A program made the position numbers and the translations under genes. Shown in pieces: positions 3,662 through 28,420 of a stretch of 32,000 nt of DNA. This DNA comes from Candidatus Scalindua sp. GTDB taxonomy: Bacteria; Planctomycetota; Brocadiia; Brocadiales; Scalinduaceae. The notes under the pieces are model-generated. The model ran no database searches, was not told the origin of the DNA, and saw only the letters and a list, made by a program, of their open reading frames with translations. The DNA is taken from NCBI GenBank assembly GCA_031316235.1, contig JALDRA010000001.1:3690001-3722000 (forward strand), read 5' to 3'. Numbering within the stretch: the stretch's first letter is position 1; every line of letters starts with the position of its first letter.

Positions 3662-3942
3662 ACTCTTTTCATACGGAAATGTTGTTCCAGCCCGATCGTA
3701 TCACTTGGGATGGACTCGGCTGGAGAGCATGATGCGCGTAACCTGATGCATGAGAATTGTCATTGTAAGCAATTGTAATGCAGGAAGTTAATAGAAACAG
3801 CATCGCTTGATTCGAAACAATTTTAAAAATCAAATAACTATAAATGACCAAAATCATGTTCAGCCATTTTTTCTTCCCCAAACAAAGTTGTTTATAATTT
3901 CGATATTGAGATGTAACTTTAGACAAAAACTTGCTGCGAAGG

Positions 3943-4015
3943 ATCTTGGTTGCAGTCATACTCGCTCAAATTTATCTCGTATTTTATCCGGAAACCATTA
4001 TGAGATGGGTATAGT
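3943..4015. repeat. intergenic repeat family, copy A
   Basis: ATCTTGGT..ATACTCGCTCAAATTTATCTCGTATTTTATCCGGAAACCATTATGAGATGGGTATA. By hand alignment ~50/56 identical to copy B (13072-13143). Confidence 0.65.
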
Positions 4016-4313
4016 ATAATTTTTCCGAGTAGCCGGAATCGTAACTTATACCATACTGAAAGGTTTCTTTTCAATATAATTTGAAAATGGATACCCGTTT
4101 TGGCTTGGCATTCATGTACTTATCCGTTGACATTATTTAAATAAATTGATACTATCAAAGTCTATGTCACCCGCATAGTTCTGAGACTTTATCCTTCTGG
4201 TATTACACCCGTTTTTCAAAAGTTTCCAAGAGAAAATAAGCAGACTTTGCTTGGTTTTTATGCCTAATTTCATAATTTTCAGTTCTAAATGACACAAAAA
4301 TTTTTCTAAGGGG

Positions 4314-4928
4314 ATGGGTATGATTAAATTAGAAGGATCGACTTTCAGACTTTTGCTGTTTATCTTACCTCTGTTATACGGTTGCAGTACACCAGTGACA
4401 AAGCTTCCAGTACAAAGCAAATATGTTGCGCCTGTATCACCTAAACCGGAAATTCTTATCCCAAATGCCATTCAAAGCGAGTTGGAAAGATTTAAACCCA
4501 GGCACTGGAAATACATTGTAATCCATCACAGTGCGTCTGATGCGGGGAATGCCTCTTCAATCGGGAAATATCACCGGGAGGTCAATGGGTGGGAGAATGG
4601 CTTAGGCTACCATTTCTTAATTGGAAATGGAAATGGCGCAGGTGATGGTCAAATAGAAGTTGGCAATAGATGGAACAGCCAGATAGATGGTGCACATGCT
4701 GGAAATGGAGAGTACAATAAATATGGCATCGGTATCTGCCTGGTGGGGAACTTTGAGGATAGATATCCTACAGATCCACAAATTACATCCCTTGTTTACC
4801 TGGTAAATTATCTCCAGAAATGTTGTAATATATCAAAAGAAAATATTGTCATGCATTGTAACGTACGGCAAACCGTATGCCCTGGTAACCATTTTCCGTA
4901 TTATAAGGTTCTGGCCAATCTGAGGTAA
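4314..4928 (+). CDS. N-acetylmuramoyl-L-alanine amidase (amidase_2 / AmpD-PGRP type) lipoprotein
   Basis: Lipobox LLYGCS follows a signal peptide. Motifs present: IVIHHSASD, GYHFLIGNG, GAHAGN..YNKYGIGICLVGNF, CPGNHFP. SD AAGGGG favours the second ATG at 4320 as the true start. Confidence 0.85.
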   Translation: MGMIKLEGSTFRLLLFILPLLYGCSTPVTKLPVQSKYVAPVSPKPEILIPNAIQSELERFKPRHWKYIVIHHSASDAGNASSIGKYHREVNGWENGLGYHFLIGNGNGAGDGQIEVGNRWNSQIDGAHAGNGEYNKYGIGICLVGNFEDRYPTDPQITSLVYLVNYLQKCCNISKENIVMHCNVRQTVCPGNHFPYYKVLANLR

Positions 4929-4963
4929 TTTTTTGAAGGCTATGTCTTCAACAAGTTGCAATA

Positions 4964-5650
4964 ATGCTACCCATACGAGATAAAAATCCATCAAACACCT
5001 TTCCATTCGTAACGATTGTAATTATTGTTGTAAATGTATTTATGTTTCTTGTGGAAATCTCTTTGGAAACAGAACTGGATGGTTTTCTCATGAATTATGG
5101 TGTTGTTCCGCGTAAGATTATGCATCATATTCAGGTAGGTGATTCAACCAATTTTACCTCTGTTTTCCCCTTTTTTTCATCAATGTTTCTGCACGGTGGG
5201 GTGTTTCATCTTGTTGGTAATATGTGGTATTTGTGGATTTTTGGTGACAATATTGAAGATGAATTGGGGCATTTTAAATACCTCTGCTTTTATGTCTTTT
5301 GCGGGATGACTGCATCTCTTGTTCATGTCTTTTTTAATAGTAATTCAGGTACTCCATGCATTGGTGCCAGCGGTGCAATAGCTGGTGTCCTGGGTGCCTA
5401 TACAATTAGATTTCCTTATGCAAGGGTTGTAACAATTATTCCTATCGTGTTTATATGGCCAATCATAGAATTGCCCGCTATGGTTGTTCTGGGATTCTGG
5501 TTTGTTATACAATTTTTTAATGGAGCGGCATCGATTACTGCCTCAGTTTCTGGCGGTGGTGTTGCCTGGTGGGCTCACATTGGAGGTTTTATTTCGGGAA
5601 TATCCACATTTTATGTCCTGCGAAAAGTTTTTGGTGAGAACCAGAGATAA
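4964..5650 (+). CDS. rhomboid family intramembrane serine protease
   Basis: 228-aa polytopic ORF with catalytic GASGAIAGVLGAY (GxSG) and AHIGGFISG (His) motifs, plus HGG..HL..NM in TM2. Confidence 0.85.
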   Translation: MLPIRDKNPSNTFPFVTIVIIVVNVFMFLVEISLETELDGFLMNYGVVPRKIMHHIQVGDSTNFTSVFPFFSSMFLHGGVFHLVGNMWYLWIFGDNIEDELGHFKYLCFYVFCGMTASLVHVFFNSNSGTPCIGASGAIAGVLGAYTIRFPYARVVTIIPIVFIWPIIELPAMVVLGFWFVIQFFNGAASITASVSGGGVAWWAHIGGFISGISTFYVLRKVFGENQR

Positions 5651-5795
5651 TTGAGAGCCTGCTGAGATAAGAGAACCAGATATTTACCGTTAAAATCTGT
5701 AAAATGATGAGCCAGGGCAGAACGTTTCATGTCAACCAGCAATGTTGAGCGGTATTTTTGCCGAACACGTCATGGGATCTGAGAGGCGTTTATTC

Positions 5796-6929
5796 TCATA
5801 CTGTTTCTTCTTGCTTCGTTATAGTCATAATACCCATACCTTCTCTCCACAGTAACATGAAACCTATCAGGGTGACCGGGATAATGGATGTTGCCCATAA
5901 GAGTATTGCATAACTCTGTGCTGAAGACATGCCAATGTCGAACAGAGAGAGAGTTTTTTGTGTGGCAATGTGAAAAACTCCTATATAACCCGGAGCCTGT
6001 GGCAGTGCTACAGCCAGTGACAGGCATACCATAACGAAACAGGCCCCCACAAAAGATAGATTAAGATTAAAGGAATAAGCTAAAATATATATTCCTGCAG
6101 CATTGAGTATCCATATAACGAAGGAAAGTATCCCTGCAGAAAATAGATCTTTTTTGTTGTCAAATATCTGTAATCCTGAGACAAAAGAGTCAATTAGCCC
6201 AATTAGGCTATCTTTCAGACGGTGAGGCAGGAAGAAGATCAACGTTTTAGCAACTGCAGATGCGTGTCGGGGATATGTTGATAAGAGAAAAAGAAAGAGA
6301 ACGGAAACACCTCCGAAGCAAGTGAAGAGCTTCGACCATTTCTTTAATTGCTTGATTGTGGAGATATTAATTTCGTCCTTGTCTGTTGTCTTCAGGGCGT
6401 CTGGATCATTATCTTTCGTTTCTTCGTCTATTATTTCTTGGTGTGCAGCGGAATTTGCATAGTCAGCAATCCCTGTTTGATCTTTCTGTGTGATATTTGC
6501 TGGAAGAAGGAATAACGTTACGGTGGCTAACACTATTAAACTCAGAATATCGAATACTCTTTCTATTATTACAGTAGCAGCAGCAGTAGATAATCTGACA
6601 TTCTCTCTCTTTGCTATCATGACTGGCCTTATTATTTCACCAACCCTTGCTGGCAATACATTGTTTGCCATGAAACCAATGATCGTTACAGAAAACAGAT
6701 TAAGGATAGAGACTTTTTTTACTGGTGCCAATAACCATGCCCATCTGATGGCCCTTATATAATAGCTGACGAAAATAATGAAGATTGTTGGGAGAACATA
6801 GATATATTTTGCTTCTGAAAAGGCCCTGTGTAAACTTGCCCATTCAACCTTTCTGATAAAAAGCCACGAGCAAACCGCGCTTACAAGAATTCCGAACAGA
6901 AAGACTATCTTTTTTTTATCCAGTTTCAA
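5796..6929 (-). CDS. UPF0104 / lysylphosphatidylglycerol-synthase-TM-region-like (flippase-like) membrane protein
   Basis: 377-aa polytopic ORF. The N-terminus (KKKIVFLFGILVS...YYIRAIRWAWLL) and overall layout resemble the LPG_synthase_TM/UPF0104 family. It has a hydrophilic acidic insertion in the middle. Confidence 0.65.
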   Translation of the reverse strand: MKLDKKKIVFLFGILVSAVCSWLFIRKVEWASLHRAFSEAKYIYVLPTIFIIFVSYYIRAIRWAWLLAPVKKVSILNLFSVTIIGFMANNVLPARVGEIIRPVMIAKRENVRLSTAAATVIIERVFDILSLIVLATVTLFLLPANITQKDQTGIADYANSAAHQEIIDEETKDNDPDALKTTDKDEINISTIKQLKKWSKLFTCFGGVSVLFLFLLSTYPRHASAVAKTLIFFLPHRLKDSLIGLIDSFVSGLQIFDNKKDLFSAGILSFVIWILNAAGIYILAYSFNLNLSFVGACFVMVCLSLAVALPQAPGYIGVFHIATQKTLSLFDIGMSSAQSYAILLWATSIIPVTLIGFMLLWREGMGIMTITKQEETV

Positions 6930-22609: not shown

Positions 22610-22683
22610 GGGCGATTAGCTCAGTTGGCTAGAGCACTTGCTCGACAAGCAAGGGGTCACTGGTTCGAGTCCAGTATCGCCCA
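22610..22683 (+). tRNA. tRNA, anticodon loop TCGACAA = Val(GAC)-like; integration target of the downstream island
   Basis: Cloverleaf by eye: acceptor GGGCGAT/ATCGCCC, D-arm GCTC-AGTTGGCTA-GAGC, anticodon arm CTTGC-TCGACAA-GCAAG, variable loop GGGTC, T-arm ACTGG-TTCGAGT-CCAGT, discriminator A. CCA is not encoded. Confidence 0.8.
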
Positions 22684-22711: not shown

Positions 22712-23773
22712 TTAGATATGTTTTGAAACCTCTTTTCTCTCCACTGTAGTCAAATTGTAGTCAACTTTTTCCAAAACCTTTACACAACCCCTTAAACTGT
22801 CAGGACAATGGTGTGCATAGCGTTGTGTCATTTTCATGTTTTTGTGACCAAGCAGCTTTGAAATTGAATAGAGATCGACTCCATTCCGGGTTAACCTGGT
22901 TGCAAAAGTATGACGCAGACAGTGAAAAGTAAAATCCCTTATCCCGGCTTTCTCTAAAGCATAAGCAAATGCCCTGATAAGGTTGCGTTTAAAAATCTTT
23001 GTTCCTGCATTACTAGAAAATACTAAATCGTTTTTGATATTTCTTACCTTTTCACCAGACTTCTTTTGAAGAACACCCAACGCAATACTATTTAGGGGCA
23101 AAGTTTTCGGTTTACCATTCTTTGTCTCTTTAATGAGTATAGTTTTACGGAATAAATCCACCCGAGACCATTCAAGAGAAAGTAGTTCATCCTGCCGAAG
23201 TCCTGTATTTAGACCAAAGATGATTATATCCCTAAGCCAAAGGGGGGAAGCATCAAGAAGCCTTCTTTCCTCGTCTTCTGTCAGCCAACGATCGACCTCA
23301 TTGTCCTCTTTCTCTTTTTGCACTTTGGAAACAGGGTTATCTTTTAGCCACTCCCACTCCTTAACCGCTAAATTGAAAGCCTTTGAAAGCATATAAAGTT
23401 CACGGTTAATGGTAGATGGGCTTGCGCCCTTATCTCTCCGATATACTTTATATGGAGCAATTACCTTTGGTGTTATAGAGCTTAAAACCTGGTTACCAAA
23501 GAAACTACCAAGATTTTTTAAATAGTAGGTGTATGCTTTCCGGGTATTAACTGATACTGTTGGGGCATACTCCTTCATAAACTTCTCCATCATATCGTTG
23601 AAAGTTTTCCTGCTGCTAATGGGCTTCTCTAAATACTTATCTTCAACAAGTTCAGTCCTTATTTTTGCCTCTATTGATTGAGCAAGTTTCCTGTCGGTAG
23701 TCTCAAGGCTCTTCTGAATCTTTCTACCATTATGTCTAATACACGTCCACCAAACACCACTTCGTTTAAACAT
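22712..23773 (-). CDS. int: tyrosine-type site-specific integrase
   Basis: Catalytic C-terminus HCLRHTFATRL...LLGHKNMKMTQRYAH (H-x-x-R...Y). A strong SD GGAAGGAGG lies 5 nt upstream of the ATG at 23773. The ORF is also open to 23827, where an ATG would overlap the xis stop as TAATG. Confidence 0.9.
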   Translation of the reverse strand: MFKRSGVWWTCIRHNGRKIQKSLETTDRKLAQSIEAKIRTELVEDKYLEKPISSRKTFNDMMEKFMKEYAPTVSVNTRKAYTYYLKNLGSFFGNQVLSSITPKVIAPYKVYRRDKGASPSTINRELYMLSKAFNLAVKEWEWLKDNPVSKVQKEKEDNEVDRWLTEDEERRLLDASPLWLRDIIIFGLNTGLRQDELLSLEWSRVDLFRKTILIKETKNGKPKTLPLNSIALGVLQKKSGEKVRNIKNDLVFSSNAGTKIFKRNLIRAFAYALEKAGIRDFTFHCLRHTFATRLTRNGVDLYSISKLLGHKNMKMTQRYAHHCPDSLRGCVKVLEKVDYNLTTVERKEVSKHI

Positions 23774-23826
23774 TTGTACCTCCTTCCCCGAAGCCTGATT
23801 GTGTCTGTATGACGCTATCGGAATCA

Positions 23827-24072
23827 TTATATACCATTACCATGAAGGTCTCCAAGGATTTTATTAGCAGTCTTTTCTTGTTGATTGAAAGAACATTTGA
23901 GACTTCCCATAAAGGAATCGATCTCTTTTAAATCAAATAGCCTGCGTCGACCGATCTTGATAGAAGGAATCCTACCCTGACTCGCCCATTCATATAATGA
24001 CTTTACTGGTAAACTTGTGTAGGTAGACAATTCTTTTATGTTTACATAACGTTTAGGCATATTTTTTATCAT
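23827..24072 (-). CDS. xis: excisionase-family (HTH_17/MerR-like) DNA-binding protein
   Basis: 81 aa. YVNIKELSTYTSLPVKSLYEWASQGRIPSIKIGRRRLFDLKEIDSFM matches the excisionase-type helix-turn-helix. The gene lies immediately upstream of int. Confidence 0.75.
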   Translation of the reverse strand: MIKNMPKRYVNIKELSTYTSLPVKSLYEWASQGRIPSIKIGRRRLFDLKEIDSFMGSLKCSFNQQEKTANKILGDLHGNGI

Positions 24073-24127
24073 TAGGTTTTATTTCTGATTTTATTTAATT
24101 CTATTAGTTATTATTATATATATAATA

Positions 24128-24160
24128 ATACTGTACACCCCCTGTACTTTAGTACCTTGT
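24128..24160. repeat. direct repeat DR1 (promoter/operator-like), upstream of xis
   Basis: ATACTGTACACCCCCTGTACTTTAGTACCTTGT next to an alternating-AT tract. It matches DR2 at 28103-28137 (30 identical positions, 3 substitutions, one 2-nt indel, by hand). Confidence 0.7.
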
Positions 24161-24179
24161 TACTTACTGTGACTTATAA

Positions 24180-25025
24180 TTAAGTATAGTTGTCTGTTGT
24201 TATAAGCTCTACATCACGTATTAACTTAGCTAAACAGAATTCATCGGAGTTCTGTAAATTTCCATTTTTTATCCACTTTAGAATCATATACAACCCCATA
24301 ATAAAAGCCCCTCTAAAACATGCTGTTAACGTTTTATTTGATTCATGAATATCTTCCAAAAATATTTGAATTAACAGCTTTATAGGATAGGAAATGCGTG
24401 TTTGTATCCAGCACTTTTCATTGTTATTTCTAGAAATGCTTTTAAAATCAAATATTTCATTCCTATCAATTCTGTAGTCTAACGAATCGCATAAGTCCTT
24501 AATTGTCTTTGGCACATCTAATTGAATTCCATTTGTTTTAATTGGTTTTACATCTATTTCAGCACCAAGCATTAAGTTGAACTTATTACTACCGTATTTG
24601 TTTACTACTTCTTCAAGTTTTTTGATAGCTAATGGATACTGTCGCACTGGAATCACTCCATCAAGCACATTAGAGAATTTTTCTCTAGTATGCTTAGTAC
24701 TCGCATATTTTGAATCCTTCATGATTTTTATAATTTGGCCATCCCTTATATTATGTTTCTTTGCCAAACCTATTGTACCAATACAAATTGCACCTTTTGC
24801 CAAGCTGTACTTCTCCATGTTAAAGACTGGAAGCAGTTTTTCTGCTATAACATAATCCCATTCGGACACACAAAAATTTGTTTTAATTGCTTTATTATTG
24901 CCACCATCCCATCCCACTAAATCAAAGAACATGTCCGGGGATATCTCATTTTCAACGCCTTTGTAGAAACCATGTGGTATATTCTTCATTCCTGTTATCG
25001 TGTTGCTATTTCCTGGCATAGCCAT
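24180..25025 (-). CDS. hypothetical protein (281 aa), no recognisable family
   Basis: Long ORF with SD GGGAGG ~8 nt upstream of the ATG at 25025. It is the most AT-rich gene in the window. No motifs recognised. Confidence 0.6.
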   Translation of the reverse strand: MAMPGNSNTITGMKNIPHGFYKGVENEISPDMFFDLVGWDGGNNKAIKTNFCVSEWDYVIAEKLLPVFNMEKYSLAKGAICIGTIGLAKKHNIRDGQIIKIMKDSKYASTKHTREKFSNVLDGVIPVRQYPLAIKKLEEVVNKYGSNKFNLMLGAEIDVKPIKTNGIQLDVPKTIKDLCDSLDYRIDRNEIFDFKSISRNNNEKCWIQTRISYPIKLLIQIFLEDIHESNKTLTACFRGAFIMGLYMILKWIKNGNLQNSDEFCLAKLIRDVELITTDNYT

Positions 25026-25084
25026 TTCTCAGATACCTCCCATCTAATTTTATGTTATAAATATTAAAGTAAGTACAGTTTGCT

Positions 25085-25300
25085 ATTTAAAGGGGCGCTG
25101 CCCCTCGTCGCTCACTTCGTTCGCTCCTCACCCCGGAGTTTTCTCCACCAGAGGCACCAGTCCCTCTCAACGCATCCTATTTTTTATATCCAGCCAACGG
25201 AGACCGTGCCTCTTGGTGTCGCAGGTTGCTCTCCAGCATTGCCTGCTCTAAGTTTTAGCCTCCGCTGGCTTGTAATTATTGCTTACGCATTTTTATAAAA
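25085..25300 (-). ncRNA. candidate structured non-coding RNA (GC-rich patch between Zn-ribbon gene and 281-aa gene)
   Basis: No credible ORF, and clearly more GC-rich than the flanks. Helices by eye: 25192-25200 with 25262-25270 (9 bp; one position is G.U only on the minus strand); 25146-25157 with 25206-25218 (12 bp + 1 bulge, crossing the first helix); GGAG-TTTT-CTCC (25135-25146); a terminal hairpin AGGGGC-GCT-GCCCCT (25091-25105) followed on the minus strand by TTTAAAT. Confidence 0.3.
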
Positions 25301-25356
25301 TGAACGTAGAAAAGAAAAAAGTTGTGTTTAATGTGGAAATATACAGTCAATTCAAA

Positions 25357-25376
25357 TTGCTCCACTGCTAGAGCAA
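25357..25376 (-). terminator. weak terminator-like hairpin after the Zn-ribbon gene
   Basis: TTGCTC-8 nt-GAGCAA, followed on the minus strand by TTTGAATT. The stem is short and the U-tract poor. Confidence 0.25.
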
Positions 25377-25402
25377 AAAGCCTCGGTAAATTCCGTCATT
25401 TT

Positions 25403-25615
25403 TTATATAAGATTATGGATGTTTCCTTTCCCTCTATGCCCTGGGATCTTACCAAACCTATAAGGATACAAAGGGCAATTCAGACTTTCACATTTCTTTA
25501 CCTCAGATGTTGACCAGTTAAAGCACTCAAGGCATTGATACCTGATAGCCTTAAGTGGTGTTAATAATACTTCTTTTGTCCCACCATCTTTTGATTGTAT
25601 TACGTGTTTAATCAT
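25403..25615 (-). CDS. small Zn-ribbon protein (CxxC...Cx4C, CPLYPYRFGK motif)
   Basis: 70 aa. The QCLEC...KKCESLNCPLYPYRFGK pattern is common in small phage/island proteins. Its start overlaps the upstream HTH gene stop by ATGA. Confidence 0.65.
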   Translation of the reverse strand: MIKHVIQSKDGGTKEVLLTPLKAIRYQCLECFNWSTSEVKKCESLNCPLYPYRFGKIPGHRGKGNIHNLI

Positions 25616-25818
25616 TTTGCTGATACCGCATAAAGAGCCTGTTTAATTTTTTGAATATCACTGTTTCTATAAAGACGCTGCCCATTATCTAAGGTAATAA
25701 AATCCTCTGCTTTTATCTTTCTTGACTCAAACAGATATGTCAACTTGTGACGGGGGATGTCAAGGATCCTCAATGCTTCAGAAACACTAAATAATCTTTC
25801 TTCCGGTTGGTGTGACAT
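25612..25818 (-). CDS. small excisionase/MerR-like HTH DNA-binding protein (AlpA-like regulator candidate)
   Basis: 68 aa. FSVSEALRILDIPRHKLTYLFESRKI is a helix-turn-helix. SD AAGGAGGAAA precedes the ATG. Confidence 0.7.
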   Translation of the reverse strand: MSHQPEERLFSVSEALRILDIPRHKLTYLFESRKIKAEDFITLDNGQRLYRNSDIQKIKQALYAVSAK

Positions 25819-25876
25819 TCCATTTCCTCCTTATAAAGTAATCAAGAATAAAAATTAACCCTTATACTAAACATGC

Positions 25877-25914
25877 GCTACTTTTGAGGTAGCGATCGCT
25901 ACTTTTGGGGTAGC
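25877..25914. promoter_or_regulatory. tandem palindromic operator upstream of the HTH/Zn-ribbon operon
   Basis: GCTAC-TTTTGAG-GTAGC GATC GCTAC-TTTTGGG-GTAGC. The junction GTAGCGATCGCTAC is itself a perfect 14-bp palindrome. The site lies ~60-95 nt upstream of the ATG at 25818, followed on the minus strand by TAGTAT/TATAAG -10-like boxes. Confidence 0.55.
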
Positions 25915-26021
25915 AAATAAAAAAAGTTTAAAATAAATGGGAAATTTCTACTTTGAATATTGAAGGAAAGGTTCTACAGAAATGTTATATTTGTGGTAGT
26001 ACAATGAATTGAGGTTGGAGT

Positions 26022-27155
26022 TTAGAGTTTCCAGAGTATAGGCTTCTCTGGTTTATAAGAACAATAGGTTCCTATAGTGAGATTGGAAGTGAAGTGTTTC
26101 CAAAGAGAGGGATGATCATTCCTGATTTTATTAAGACTGGTATTGACAGCCTTAGAGACTGCTTTTCGTGCTTTTTCAGCGTCACCTGGAAAATCCCTTG
26201 GACGCCCATTGTTATCTGTTCCGGCACTAAGTGCTTTCTTGATTTGTTCCATTTTATTTACAATTTTAGCTATACTTACATCGCTTTTTGGGATTTCATC
26301 ATCTTCGAGTTCAGCATTGAGGTCATCGTATCTTTTTCGGATGCTTGTAATATATTCTGTGTCCACCATTGCGTCTCTTCTTTCTATCTCTGTTAATGAA
26401 ACCCTATTTTTGATTAAATCTGTTAACTTAAGAACGTGGAATTCTTGTCCAGGAGTTTTCAATAGGAAATATATATATTCCAAACCTTTCATATGTTTAA
26501 GCTGGATGGGTTTATTATCATAAACGATATCCCAGTAATCACCACCACTCTTCCTCCTAAATACATTACCTTTTAGCAATTTCTCATCTGCATACGATGC
26601 CTTTGGTTGCAAGTGTTTGATTTTCTCACTTTGGGCCAGGGACAATAAAGCAGTTGCATCATGTACTTCGTTATTTAGGCTAGGGTCTCTTGATGACTCT
26701 CTGTCAATTATCATTCTTTTAAGTGCATCATGTGCTCCCATGATTGCAAGAATTGCCAAGATGTGATAGTCTTCGATTTGTTTGCCTAGTGTTGGTTTGG
26801 CATTATCCTTAACTAAGCTTATAGCTCTTTCATATCCGTCACGAAGAGTGCTTTCTGGATAACCTTGGTCATAATCTACAAGACTGTTTATTACTTCAGG
26901 ATATGTATCAGCGATAGATCGTGCAGACGCTAATTTTTGTTGCAAGTCTTCATTGTCTCCTGTTGGATAGAAGTTTGATGAAACACCTGAATGGCTACAA
27001 GTATATTTAATGTCCCATATTTCTCTTGCATCCGTTATAACATTCCAACAACTGTATATTGGATGACCCACACATGCTCCTCCGCTAAATAAGAATCCCA
27101 ATAACGGGCACCAATCACTTGCGATAAACTTTTTATATAACTCTTCACTTACCAC
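26022..27155 (-). CDS. hypothetical protein (377 aa): unknown N-terminal domain + C-terminal winged-helix-like domain of an uncharacterised widespread family
   Basis: GTG start with SD GAGGGA. The C-terminal half carries FRRKSGGDYWDIVYDNKPIQLKHMKGLEYIYFLLKTPGQEFHVLKL ... AEKARKAVSKAVNTSLNKIRNDHPSLWKHF..IGTYCSYKP. I recall this pattern from many unannotated bacterial proteins. Confidence 0.7.
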   Translation of the reverse strand: MVSEELYKKFIASDWCPLLGFLFSGGACVGHPIYSCWNVITDAREIWDIKYTCSHSGVSSNFYPTGDNEDLQQKLASARSIADTYPEVINSLVDYDQGYPESTLRDGYERAISLVKDNAKPTLGKQIEDYHILAILAIMGAHDALKRMIIDRESSRDPSLNNEVHDATALLSLAQSEKIKHLQPKASYADEKLLKGNVFRRKSGGDYWDIVYDNKPIQLKHMKGLEYIYFLLKTPGQEFHVLKLTDLIKNRVSLTEIERRDAMVDTEYITSIRKRYDDLNAELEDDEIPKSDVSIAKIVNKMEQIKKALSAGTDNNGRPRDFPGDAEKARKAVSKAVNTSLNKIRNDHPSLWKHFTSNLTIGTYCSYKPEKPILWKL

Positions 27156-27195
27156 TTATCATCCCTCTAAAATGACAACCCTCTATAAATAAAAT

Positions 27196-27236
27196 GGTGG
27201 GCAGGCTGTAGAGGACAGCTTTTCGGGGAGCTCACC
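27196..27236 (-). promoter_or_regulatory. structured 5' leader hairpin (terminator/attenuator-like) just upstream of the 377-aa gene
   Basis: Outer stem GGTGGGC/GCTCACC encloses the inner hairpin GCTGT-AGAGG-ACAGC. On the minus strand it is followed by ATTTTATTTAT and then the RBS. On the plus strand the inner hairpin is followed by TTTT. Confidence 0.3.
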
Positions 27237-27253
27237 CTAGCCCAGATGTACTT

Positions 27254-27282
27254 ATGATATAATTGTGCTTTTAATATGTCTA
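27254..27282 (-). promoter_or_regulatory. putative sigma70-type promoter of the 377-aa gene
   Basis: The minus strand reads TAGACA, a 17-nt spacer, then TATCAT (5/6 and 5/6 matches to consensus). This implies a ~90-nt leader. Confidence 0.4.
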
Positions 27283-27465
27283 GTTTTATTAAAGCAGTTA
27301 GATGCAGAATGCCTCTCAGGTATAACTCAAGCCCATTCTAACCATTCAAATCAGGCATGAATACCTCTGCCTATAAAAACGACAAACATGCCTGTATGGC
27401 CTAATCTGGTCTGTTCTATGCTCTCGCACTCCATATATCATGAGCAATTCATTATAATTTATAAC

Positions 27466-27513
27466 GAAATTTGTCTGAATGGTCCGGCTGTATGGACGAA
27501 TCAGACAAATTTC
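27466..27513. repeat. perfect 13-bp inverted repeat (long stem-loop)
   Basis: GAAATTTGTCTGA (27466-27478) / TCAGACAAATTTC (27501-27513) with a 22-nt loop. The loop can extend the helix through GTCC (27482-27485) / GGAC (27494-27497). Confidence 0.7.
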
Positions 27514-28102
27514 ATGATGAGTTTTTACATGATATTGTAGGAGCCATGAGTAGGTAAGTTACTAGCTATAAGATAATAGCATATTGTGTCGTGTGATACC
27601 TGGGAAGGGTTAGCATAGAAACAGAATTAAAATAAGCTAACTTTTGTAAAACTTGTACGAGATCTATACTTGTTCATGAAAAGGAATGTCTAGTCAGGGA
27701 AATTATAAACTTTTGGTATATAGGCTTATTAGCTTTAGAGATACTATTAGGAAGGTTTATTACTGATCTAATAAAGGGTGTAGACAAAATAACTACATTC
27801 ATATCTACACAAGGAAGAAGATACAGGTAATCAGACAAAACAATATAACCATCATAGATAAGCAACATAATACGTATCAAGAACTATCAGCCTTACATTT
27901 ACACATTTATATAACCTAGACGGGGGGAGTTTCCGGAATGGCGAATTCTTCAGGGAAAATTTTACACGTACGGAATACGGTAGGGGGTGGGGATGAGAAT
28001 AATACGTAGAGTAATACTCTCCCATGACAGACTGGTACCATCTTGAATTATACGTGAATAGGGAGTCCTAAGATTTAGTATATTAATATATATTATATTA
28101 AT

Positions 28103-28137
28103 ATACTGTATACACCCCCTGTACCTGAGTACCTTTT
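28103..28137. repeat. direct repeat DR2 (promoter/operator-like), copy of DR1
   Basis: ATACTGTATACACCCCCTGTACCTGAGTACCTTTT preceded by an alternating-AT tract containing TATAAT-like boxes on the minus strand. Confidence 0.7.
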
Positions 28138-28420
28138 GTATTCTCAATTGATGGTACACCTATACCTTTATTAGATAGTCTATGAGACCAAAGGAATACC
28201 TTGGTTTGATTGTGTGGGTATCTATTGAGGCTATACGTGTGACAGACATATGCCTGTTTTCTGAGGCAGGGGATACCTTTTGATTTGATGAAGTGGTATC
28301 TTGCTTAATCGTGTACTCTTCCGGATGATATAGAAGCCAGCAAACCAGATGTTGCCTATTTTACGTATTAGCATTCTGTTCTAATTTTTTTATTTTTAGG
28401 TGTTGATTTGATCGTTTGAA

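Follow-up and report, generated by a model that had tools for sequence, protein, structure and literature searches.

We consider it probable that the block of four co-oriented minus-strand genes described here is the control backbone, and the likely replication backbone, of an integrative satellite-like element that sits at a tRNA-Val gene of Candidatus Scalindua and carries the adjacent SIR2 and type I restriction genes as cargo. The block lies in a 32,000-nt stretch (the window) of a metagenome-assembled genome of Candidatus Scalindua sp., an anammox planctomycete (GCA_031316235.1, contig JALDRA010000001.1), and its open reading frames (ORFs) encode proteins of 281 aa (24180–25025), 70 aa (25403–25615; Cys-rich, CxxC ... 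Cx4C, the Zn-ribbon gene), 68 aa (25612–25818; a helix-turn-helix, or HTH, protein) and 377 aa (26022–27155; GTG start). Read along the minus strand, the order is int-alpA RNA, the 377-aa gene, a tandem GCTAC-N7-GTAGC site, the 68-aa HTH gene, the 70-aa gene, a GC-rich block, the 281-aa gene, a promoter-like box, xis and int. An earlier reading made from the letters alone (the sequence-only reading) had pointed out the four ORFs, the 4-nt ATGA overlap of the 68-aa and 70-aa genes (25612–25615), the low G+C and the tandem palindromes, all of which are present as claimed; the overlap suggests translational coupling of the two small genes, and the G+C minimum of the whole window (0.313) falls in the interval 24001–25000.

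The backbone assignment is carried by the comparison with seven related loci (L001, L002, L004, L014, L015 and the P0017 and P0021 loci), which gives a common order of variable, in many cases defence-like cargo, int-alpA RNA, a 377-type gene, GCTAC-N7-GTAGC, a gene for a 66–68-aa HTH protein, a replication slot, xis and a recombinase. The Scalindua locus L001 has a 377-like gene, a 66-aa HTH gene (61% identity), a 281-like gene (32%) that starts 58 bp after the HTH gene, xis and int in the window's order, and L004, also from Scalindua, keeps the 377-like gene, the 281-like gene (47%), xis (66%) and int in that order without the HTH gene. The 377-like proteins of these two loci are 41–42% identical to the window protein, and in both loci the 377-like and 281-like genes occur together with int. 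The L002, L014, L015, P0017 and P0021 loci combine a 377-type gene, a small HTH gene, a replication-type gene, xis and a recombinase; in the distant members the homology to the 377-aa protein is limited to the C-terminal ~190 aa and the N-termini are unrelated, the gene order being retained, with a 66–68-aa gene, sometimes a second small gene, and a recombinase of either the tyrosine or the large serine type.

The replication slot holds replication-type genes in five relatives and a member of the 281-aa family in the window, L001 and L004. The slot is occupied by 65-aa and 260-aa genes of no known family followed by DnaB_C plus a DnaG zinc ribbon in L002, by AAA_25 in L014, by a D5-type primase-helicase (D5_N/Pox_D5/DUF5906) in the P0017 locus, by Zn_ribbon_DnaG plus DUF3987 in the P0021 locus and by DUF3854 plus a 604-aa unknown in L015. 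One of the two roles that the sequence-only reading had offered for the genes, the regulatory–replication core of a phage-satellite-like element, is therefore the one that the comparison favours, since other Scalindua contigs repeat the combination of 377-type gene, leader RNA, palindrome and 68-aa HTH gene near xis and a recombinase and the position of the 281-aa gene is held by primase/helicase genes in sister elements.

The other role, a defence or anti-defence module, fared differently. If the four genes were a new anti-phage system, in which the 377-aa protein combined the roles of sensor and effector and had the 281-aa protein for a partner, their position beside SIR2 and type I restriction genes and the absence of annotation for the proteins would be as expected, and in Streptomyces the C-terminal module of the 377-aa protein does come after a STAND NTPase and TPR repeats, an arrangement that immune sensors often have. 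However, PADLOC returned no match for the 281-, 70- and 377-aa proteins, and the module follows TPR much as the LuxR-type output domain does in MalT-type regulators, its receiver fusions being typical of transcription factors. The upstream cargo, moreover, is SIR2 and type I restriction-modification (R-M) in the window and SLFN_AlbA_2, TIR_2, KAP_NTPase or HATPase_c_3 in the relatives, so that the block is tied to xis and int and to no particular defence gene. Because the cargo changes and the block stays linked to the recombination genes, we read the block as element backbone and regard a defence system as the least probable of the alternatives. Nor does the comparison support a single four-gene system, as had been proposed: the Zn-ribbon gene has no counterpart in the loci compared at the DNA level, and the 281-aa protein is one of several interchangeable occupants of its slot.

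The flanks agree with an integrative element and are as the sequence-only reading described them. On one side a tRNA-Val (GAC) gene on the plus strand (22610–22683; ARAGORN, and 68 bits for the Rfam tRNA model) is the probable integration target and marks the attL side. The gene for a 371-aa tyrosine integrase (minus strand, 22712–23827; Pfam Phage_integrase E = 2e-37, plus SAM-like N-terminal domains) begins 29 nt from it, and its product has 61–66% identity with the L001 and L004 integrases. The 81-aa excisionase-type HTH_17 protein, xis, is encoded next to it on the same strand (23827–24072; Pfam HTH_17 40.4 bits against a cut-off of 27, NCBIfam 'excise' 32.3 bits against 28.8) and is 66% identical to the xis of L004 and 59% to that of L014. 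The opposite flank encodes SIR2_2, a peptidase resembling YgjP and a fragment of HsdR. Within the window the tRNA 3′ end is not repeated, which places attR beyond 32000.

Among the components of the backbone, the C-terminal module of the 377-type protein and the palindromic site form the only pairing that is universal among the loci, and the module is the only protein feature common to all six loci compared at the DNA level. The window has two 17-nt copies of the site, GCTACCyCAAAAGTAGC, at 25877–25893 and 25898–25914 (no strand assigned), set 21 bp apart with a chance expectation of 0.02. Nine exact sites occur in 104 kb, where 0.06 are expected, and always directly after a 377-type gene; the site is a tandem pair in five of the six loci, and its distance to the start codon that follows is always 55–80 nt. 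Four aligned loci have the proximal copy without any change, the 7-nt loop or spacer is conserved in all 11 copies listed (the nine exact ones and two with one arm mismatch), and the intergenic DNA around the site is 75–84% identical, compared with 41–48% for the neighbouring 377-type proteins. As the module alone among the protein features accompanies the site in every locus, we name it the likely binder of the tandem sites, which would then be a putative operator. A scan of viral contigs for the operator 18-mer returned two unrelated sites without related proteins.

It is also conceivable that the small proteins do the regulating, with the 68-aa HTH protein (or xis) sitting head to tail on the sites and controlling its own expression, and the 377-aa protein left as a non-binding accessory in signalling or interference. 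A head-to-tail tandem with an asymmetric spacer suits Xis- or BldC-like small winged-helix proteins, and the window tandem has just this form, with a 21-bp repeat and a conserved asymmetric spacer. The 68-aa protein is, furthermore, the best-conserved protein of the block: over the aligned stretch it shares 61–78% identity with its positional counterparts in L001, L014 and L002 (in the last, over the first 50 aa only). Its gene has the sites immediately in front of it, and the 377 module is only a putative DNA binder. However, L004 and L015 keep the sites and have no homologue of the 68-aa protein, the gene that comes straight after the site in L004 is the 281-like one, and of all protein genes only the 377-type gene adjoins the site in each of the six loci. 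We consider regulation by the small proteins unlikely on these grounds.

The same sequences could, alternatively, act as RNA. In such a model the tandem GCUAC-CYCAAAA-GUAGC and the int-alpA RNA would be antitermination signals of the boxB/nut or put kind, and control would be exerted at elongation and not at initiation. Each site can indeed form a 5–6-bp hairpin with the conserved 7-nt loop, one of which is detected by a terminator scan; the closing stem of the int-alpA RNA is followed by a U-run, and terminator-like hairpins are found after the Zn-ribbon gene and at the end of the GC-rich block. But the stems of the sites are invariant, with zero covariation, their 21-bp spacing corresponds to two helical turns and is typical of DNA operators, and no recognisable N- or Q-like antiterminator is present, all of which makes this model very unlikely to be correct. 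Binding of the tandem sites by the 377 module remains our preferred reading.

The 377-aa gene is preceded by a structured leader that we identify as an int-alpA RNA. The private regulatory DNA that the sequence-only reading had ascribed to the block is borne out for the tandem palindromes and for the structured leader; the 'DR promoter module' that completed it is only a weak two-copy repeat (15 nt, 27392–27406 and 27488–27502, 87% identity, beside a promoter-like site) that is not conserved in other loci. The int-alpA motif is Rfam family RF02996 (Weinberg et al. 2017, PMC5737381). The window copy occupies 27180–27247 on the minus strand, folds into three stems with a U-rich tail, scores 39.7 bits with the covariance model against a gathering score of 35.8, and lies ~25 nt upstream of the GTG start, its element also containing int, xis (HTH_17) and the 68-aa MerR/HTH_17-like gene. 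Copies upstream of 377-type genes score 46.2 bits in L001 and 41.2 bits in L002/L003, and those of L004 and L014 are recognised by alignment only. RNAalifold applied to five leaders, a small number of sequences, finds compensatory changes in 10 of the 17 predicted pairs; the single-sequence stability is ordinary (z = +0.97). A promoter-like site, TAGACA-17-TATCAT (minus strand, 27254–27282; 10 of 12 positions in a consensus scan), has a –10 element that ends 7 nt before the int-alpA RNA and would provide its start point.

Between this RNA and the coding region, directly before the GTG start, lies a putative hairpin (minus strand, 27156–27178; stem TTGTCAT/ATGATAA) that holds the Shine-Dalgarno sequence in its loop. 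The corresponding stems read TTATCAT/ATGATAA in L001 and L004, TTATC/GATAA in L014 and GTTAC/GTAAC in L002, such that the sequence varies and the pairing is kept. The int-alpA motif was reportedly described from Proteobacteria and filed as a possible small RNA (sRNA). In contrast to the published examples, the RNA is found here in Planctomycetota, always ~25 nt in front of members of one gene family and with the Shine-Dalgarno hairpin after it, an arrangement that fits a cis-acting leader. The closing stem and U-run suggest that a short RNA is made which either terminates or reads through into the 377-aa gene.

For comparison, we sampled four Escherichia coli islands beside yicC (L007, L024, L025 and L026). 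These consist of int, the int-alpA RNA, a gene for a 280–317-aa hypothetical protein and one for a 68–72-aa HTH protein, and in three of the four (L007, L024 and L026) the stretch examined reaches a TOPRIM/DUF927 or DUF5906 primase-type gene further downstream. The first genes after the RNA are unannotated in all four islands and share 24–26% identity with one another; kinship of their products with the 377 or 281 families was rejected (hhalign probability ≤0.2%). As these first genes are unrelated to the Scalindua families, the int-alpA RNA goes with a type of operon and not with one protein family. The HTH regulator of L007 matches Pfam HTH_17 and Phage_AlpA. The window's 68-aa protein, which we call a MerR/excisionase-like HTH in the AlpA position on the strength of synteny and sub-threshold profiles, reaches 20.0 bits with MerR_1 (E = 7e-4; cut-off 21.6) and 18.2 bits with HTH_17 (E = 3e-3; cut-off 27), matches an excisionase PHROG below threshold and in PADLOC meets only mad1 (E = 0.0096). 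Direct kinship with E. coli AlpA was discarded as a candidate, there being no BLASTP similarity between the 68-aa protein and the AlpA-family HTH protein of L007.

The 377-aa protein is divided into an N-terminal helical domain of ~190 aa (minus strand, 26589–27155), which differs between elements, and the C-terminal module of ~190 aa (26025–26588), delimited by family alignments and an AlphaFold2 model. The sequence-only reading had held the 377-aa and 281-aa proteins to be unplaceable at the family level, and neither has a match in Pfam, PHROGs, PADLOC or NCBIfam. No Pfam family covers the C-terminal module, which is nonetheless found in at least 1479 clusters at E < 1e-5, both as a stand-alone protein of ~190–230 aa and C-terminal to REC, FHA, PadR and TPR domains, as well as after a STAND NTPase with MalT-like TPR in Streptomyces and after TPR repeats on a Bacteroidota plasmid. 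We call it a widespread unannotated output domain, possibly DNA-binding, and do not assign it to the OmpR family. The N-terminal domain is common only to P0002–P0005, the remaining family members having unrelated N-termini, and this exchange of the N-terminal half between elements suits a sensor, the role that we putatively assign to it. The full-length model is poor (predicted template modelling score, pTM, 0.43), its N-terminal half is of low confidence, and it has no match in Foldseek.

The module itself is modelled well from 52 sequences (predicted local distance difference test, pLDDT, 89.7; pTM 0.69) as three strands, a helix, a strand, a helix, a long helical hairpin, a long helix, a short helix and a terminal beta-hairpin. 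The helical hairpin is an insert of ~70 aa, and without it (residues ~65–122 treated as insert) the modelled order is that of the OmpR/PhoB winged helix. The winged helix that the sequence-only reading had suggested for the C-terminal half is retained as a topology-level idea only, the tests at sequence level having failed.

The 281-aa family is rare, with 31 clusters among 1.84 billion representatives, all of ~265–310 aa and matching over their full length. Its distant members lie in phage-like blocks with ERCC4 nuclease, ThyX and DinG-type helicases: three phage-like contigs have a family member in a block with a DinG-type helicase, and two of these also have the ERCC4 nuclease. These neighbours and the slot that the gene occupies make a role in replication probable, by position only. 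The 281 and 377 families are not related to each other by hhalign (probability ≤0.2%). Two observations were made on the side. A 1374-aa protein, P0040, contains 11 separate stretches that match positions 137–227 of the 281-family profile, and a segment of the family thus seems to exist elsewhere as a tandem repeat. The phage-like contig L011 encodes, downstream of its 281-family member, a DinG-type helicase (3837–6476) with intein-type domains (Hom_end_hint and LAGLIDADG_3).

From these components a mechanism can be proposed. The 377-aa protein would be the element's master regulator, its C-terminal module binding the tandem sites that lie shortly past the end of its gene and its swappable N-terminal domain receiving the inducing signal. 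Binding would gate expression of the HTH protein in the AlpA position and, through this protein or directly, of the replication-slot gene and xis–int. The int-alpA RNA, as a cis-acting leader of the terminator or attenuator type, would set the amount of 377-aa protein, and the 281-aa protein would supply a function in replication initiation or its organisation, as the primase-helicases do in sister elements. A further-reaching joint reading is that the module is an undescribed widespread output domain that recognises the tandem site and makes up, with the int-alpA RNA, a new satellite master switch whose inducer is tuned by the N-termini, and that the 281-aa protein represents a new class of replication initiator replacing primase-helicases; we put this forward tentatively, and would not expect all of its parts to hold.

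Master repressors of the Stl type in Staphylococcus aureus pathogenicity islands (SaPIs) consist of a conserved DNA-binding part and a divergent part that may sense different inducers and are encoded beside the operator of the excision–replication operon. The 377-aa protein likewise has a conserved and a divergent part and a gene beside the putative operator, and the comparison is meant as 'works like' only: there is no relationship in sequence or fold, and the domains come in the opposite order, the variable part being N-terminal. Similarly, the module takes the output position after a STAND NTPase with MalT-like TPR, TPR, REC and FHA, as in MalT/LAL and response-regulator transcription factors, but is neither LuxR, OmpR nor any other Pfam family and measures ~190 aa with its ~70-aa helical-hairpin insert.

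At the level of the whole element, the closest likeness is with phage-inducible chromosomal islands (PICIs) and P4-like satellites and their int–alpA–primase core. The window shares with them an integrase, an excisionase-type HTH and a putative HTH regulator in the AlpA position, an int-alpA RNA at the head of the regulatory operon, a slot for a replication gene and defence genes as cargo. Unlike in those elements, int is found at the distal end of the operon and not before the RNA, the first operon gene is unrelated to the E. coli ones, and the host is a planctomycete. The elements compared here also resemble virion-encapsidated integrative mobile elements (VEIMEs; PMC9618062) and PICMIs, minimalist chromosomal islands inducible by phage (PMC10803314), in their marine host setting, their tyrosine or serine recombinase, their excisionase/AlpA regulators, their primase-helicase modules and their defence-type cargo. 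They differ from both in their regulator and replication-slot proteins, and IMG/VR holds no relative of the 377 family. The shared traits are also those of tycheposons, which are elements that target tRNA genes.

Several of our results weigh against the backbone reading or against parts of it, the last-mentioned IMG/VR result among them. From tRNA-Val to 32000 we find no gene for packaging or capsid redirection (terS, sid/psu/delta, ppi) among those scanned, the element extending past the window. Integrase, regulator and replicase alone make an ambiguous 'Type C' under SatelliteFinder-family criteria (PMC10085698), and no gene in 22.7–28.4 kb matches a primase, helicase or Rep profile (Pfam, PHROGs, PADLOC, NCBIfam). 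Membership among the satellites is accordingly not established, and the locus, for which no packaging gene, attR or helper phage is known, may also be a plain integrative element. The leader RNA was not detected in L015. As set out above, xis or the 68-aa HTH protein could be what occupies the sites, or these, with their conserved spacer, could be RNA hairpins. For the 281-aa protein, the replication role is not backed by any motif, profile or structure match, and searches with 28 family members found none in Pfam, PHROGs or the PDB sequences. As for the module, its best Foldseek match is the AdeR DNA-binding domain at E = 0.88, with ToxR and RegX3 also listed and none of them significant, and its structure has no significant match in PDB or BFVD. 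An OmpR-like winged helix was, moreover, rejected at the sequence level three times over, as insert-deleted sequences do not match Trans_reg_C, PDB profile searches are negative and hhalign against PhoB/ArlR gives a probability of 0.3%. The outcome for the two large proteins is that neither has a confident profile or structure match to a known family, and that their genes co-occur in other genomes.

To our knowledge no satellites have been described from anammox Planctomycetota, and the window points to a family of integrative satellite-like elements with defence cargo in this group. The int-alpA RNA gains a consistent address, at the head of the regulatory operon before its first gene, in E. 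coli satellites and in Scalindua alike, which turns an orphan 'sRNA' into a testable cis-acting leader. Two unannotated protein families are flagged, one a common output domain and the other a rare family linked to replication modules. For annotation, the message is that the block is island backbone and is not to be counted as a candidate defence system.

The Zn-ribbon gene and the 377-bp spacer with its GC-rich block are without counterpart in the loci compared at the DNA level. The 70-aa protein gives only weak zinc-finger noise and no significant family in Pfam, PHROGs, PADLOC or NCBIfam, and its homologue is absent from every related locus compared at the DNA level. Positional analogues exist in the P0017 locus (a 71-aa gene) and in L014 (a 127-aa Cys-rich gene); in both, the second small gene overlaps the HTH gene, and the Cys-rich one of L014 is dissimilar in sequence to the 70-aa protein. 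A consensus scan places a terminator-like hairpin (minus strand, 25357–25376) 27 nt past the Zn-ribbon stop codon. It is followed by the GC-rich block (minus strand, 25085–25300, fold ~25090–25290), which lies in a 377-bp spacer with AT-rich surroundings, and folds better than all 200 shuffles (0/200 as stable; z = –3.9). Its last element is the hairpin GGGGCAGCGCCCC, after which comes UUUAAAU. This block may be an orphan leader or non-coding RNA upstream of the 281-aa gene; Rfam searches, permissive ones included, gave only noise, related loci contain no match, and an anchor scan of metagenomes returned 16 loci, all chance matches. We regard the Zn-ribbon gene and the GC-rich block as lineage-specific additions.

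The whole cassette is bracketed by two boxes on the minus strand. Box 1 (24104–24160), upstream of xis–int, consists of AAGGTACTaAaGTACAGGGGGTGTA and an AT-rich palindrome; box 2 (28075–28135), 3977 bp away, aligns with it and comprises a copy of the motif, an AT-rich palindrome and a promoter-like site. Both share a 24-nt core, AAGGTACTnAnGTACAGGGGGTGTA, before the palindrome, and both overlap promoter-like sites in the same register, that of box 1 at 24137..24110. The window contains exactly two occurrences of the core GTACAGGGGGTGTA, where 0.09 are expected, and the motif is absent from the related loci, being confined to the window element. Our best guess is that the boxes are two promoters under one regulator; they may also be the trace of a duplication.

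Box 2 falls within a 1.2-kb ORF-poor stretch (27250–28420) between the SIR2 stop codon and the int-alpA RNA. This stretch is not conserved in L001 or L004, and the small ORFs of 27.25–28.42 kb give no family signal. It also contains a 30-nt inverted repeat (27456–27485 and 27494–27523) and, at 27479..27451, a promoter-like site whose TATAAT is perfect. Finally, the related locus L002, from Candidatus Scalindua rubra, carries at 424–498 on the plus strand a c4-2 RNA (RF02944; 46.5 bits against a gathering score of 41) that adjoins a tRNA fragment and a second integrase. This motif is an antisense-immunity RNA of the P1/P7/P4 kind, here found in a planctomycete element.

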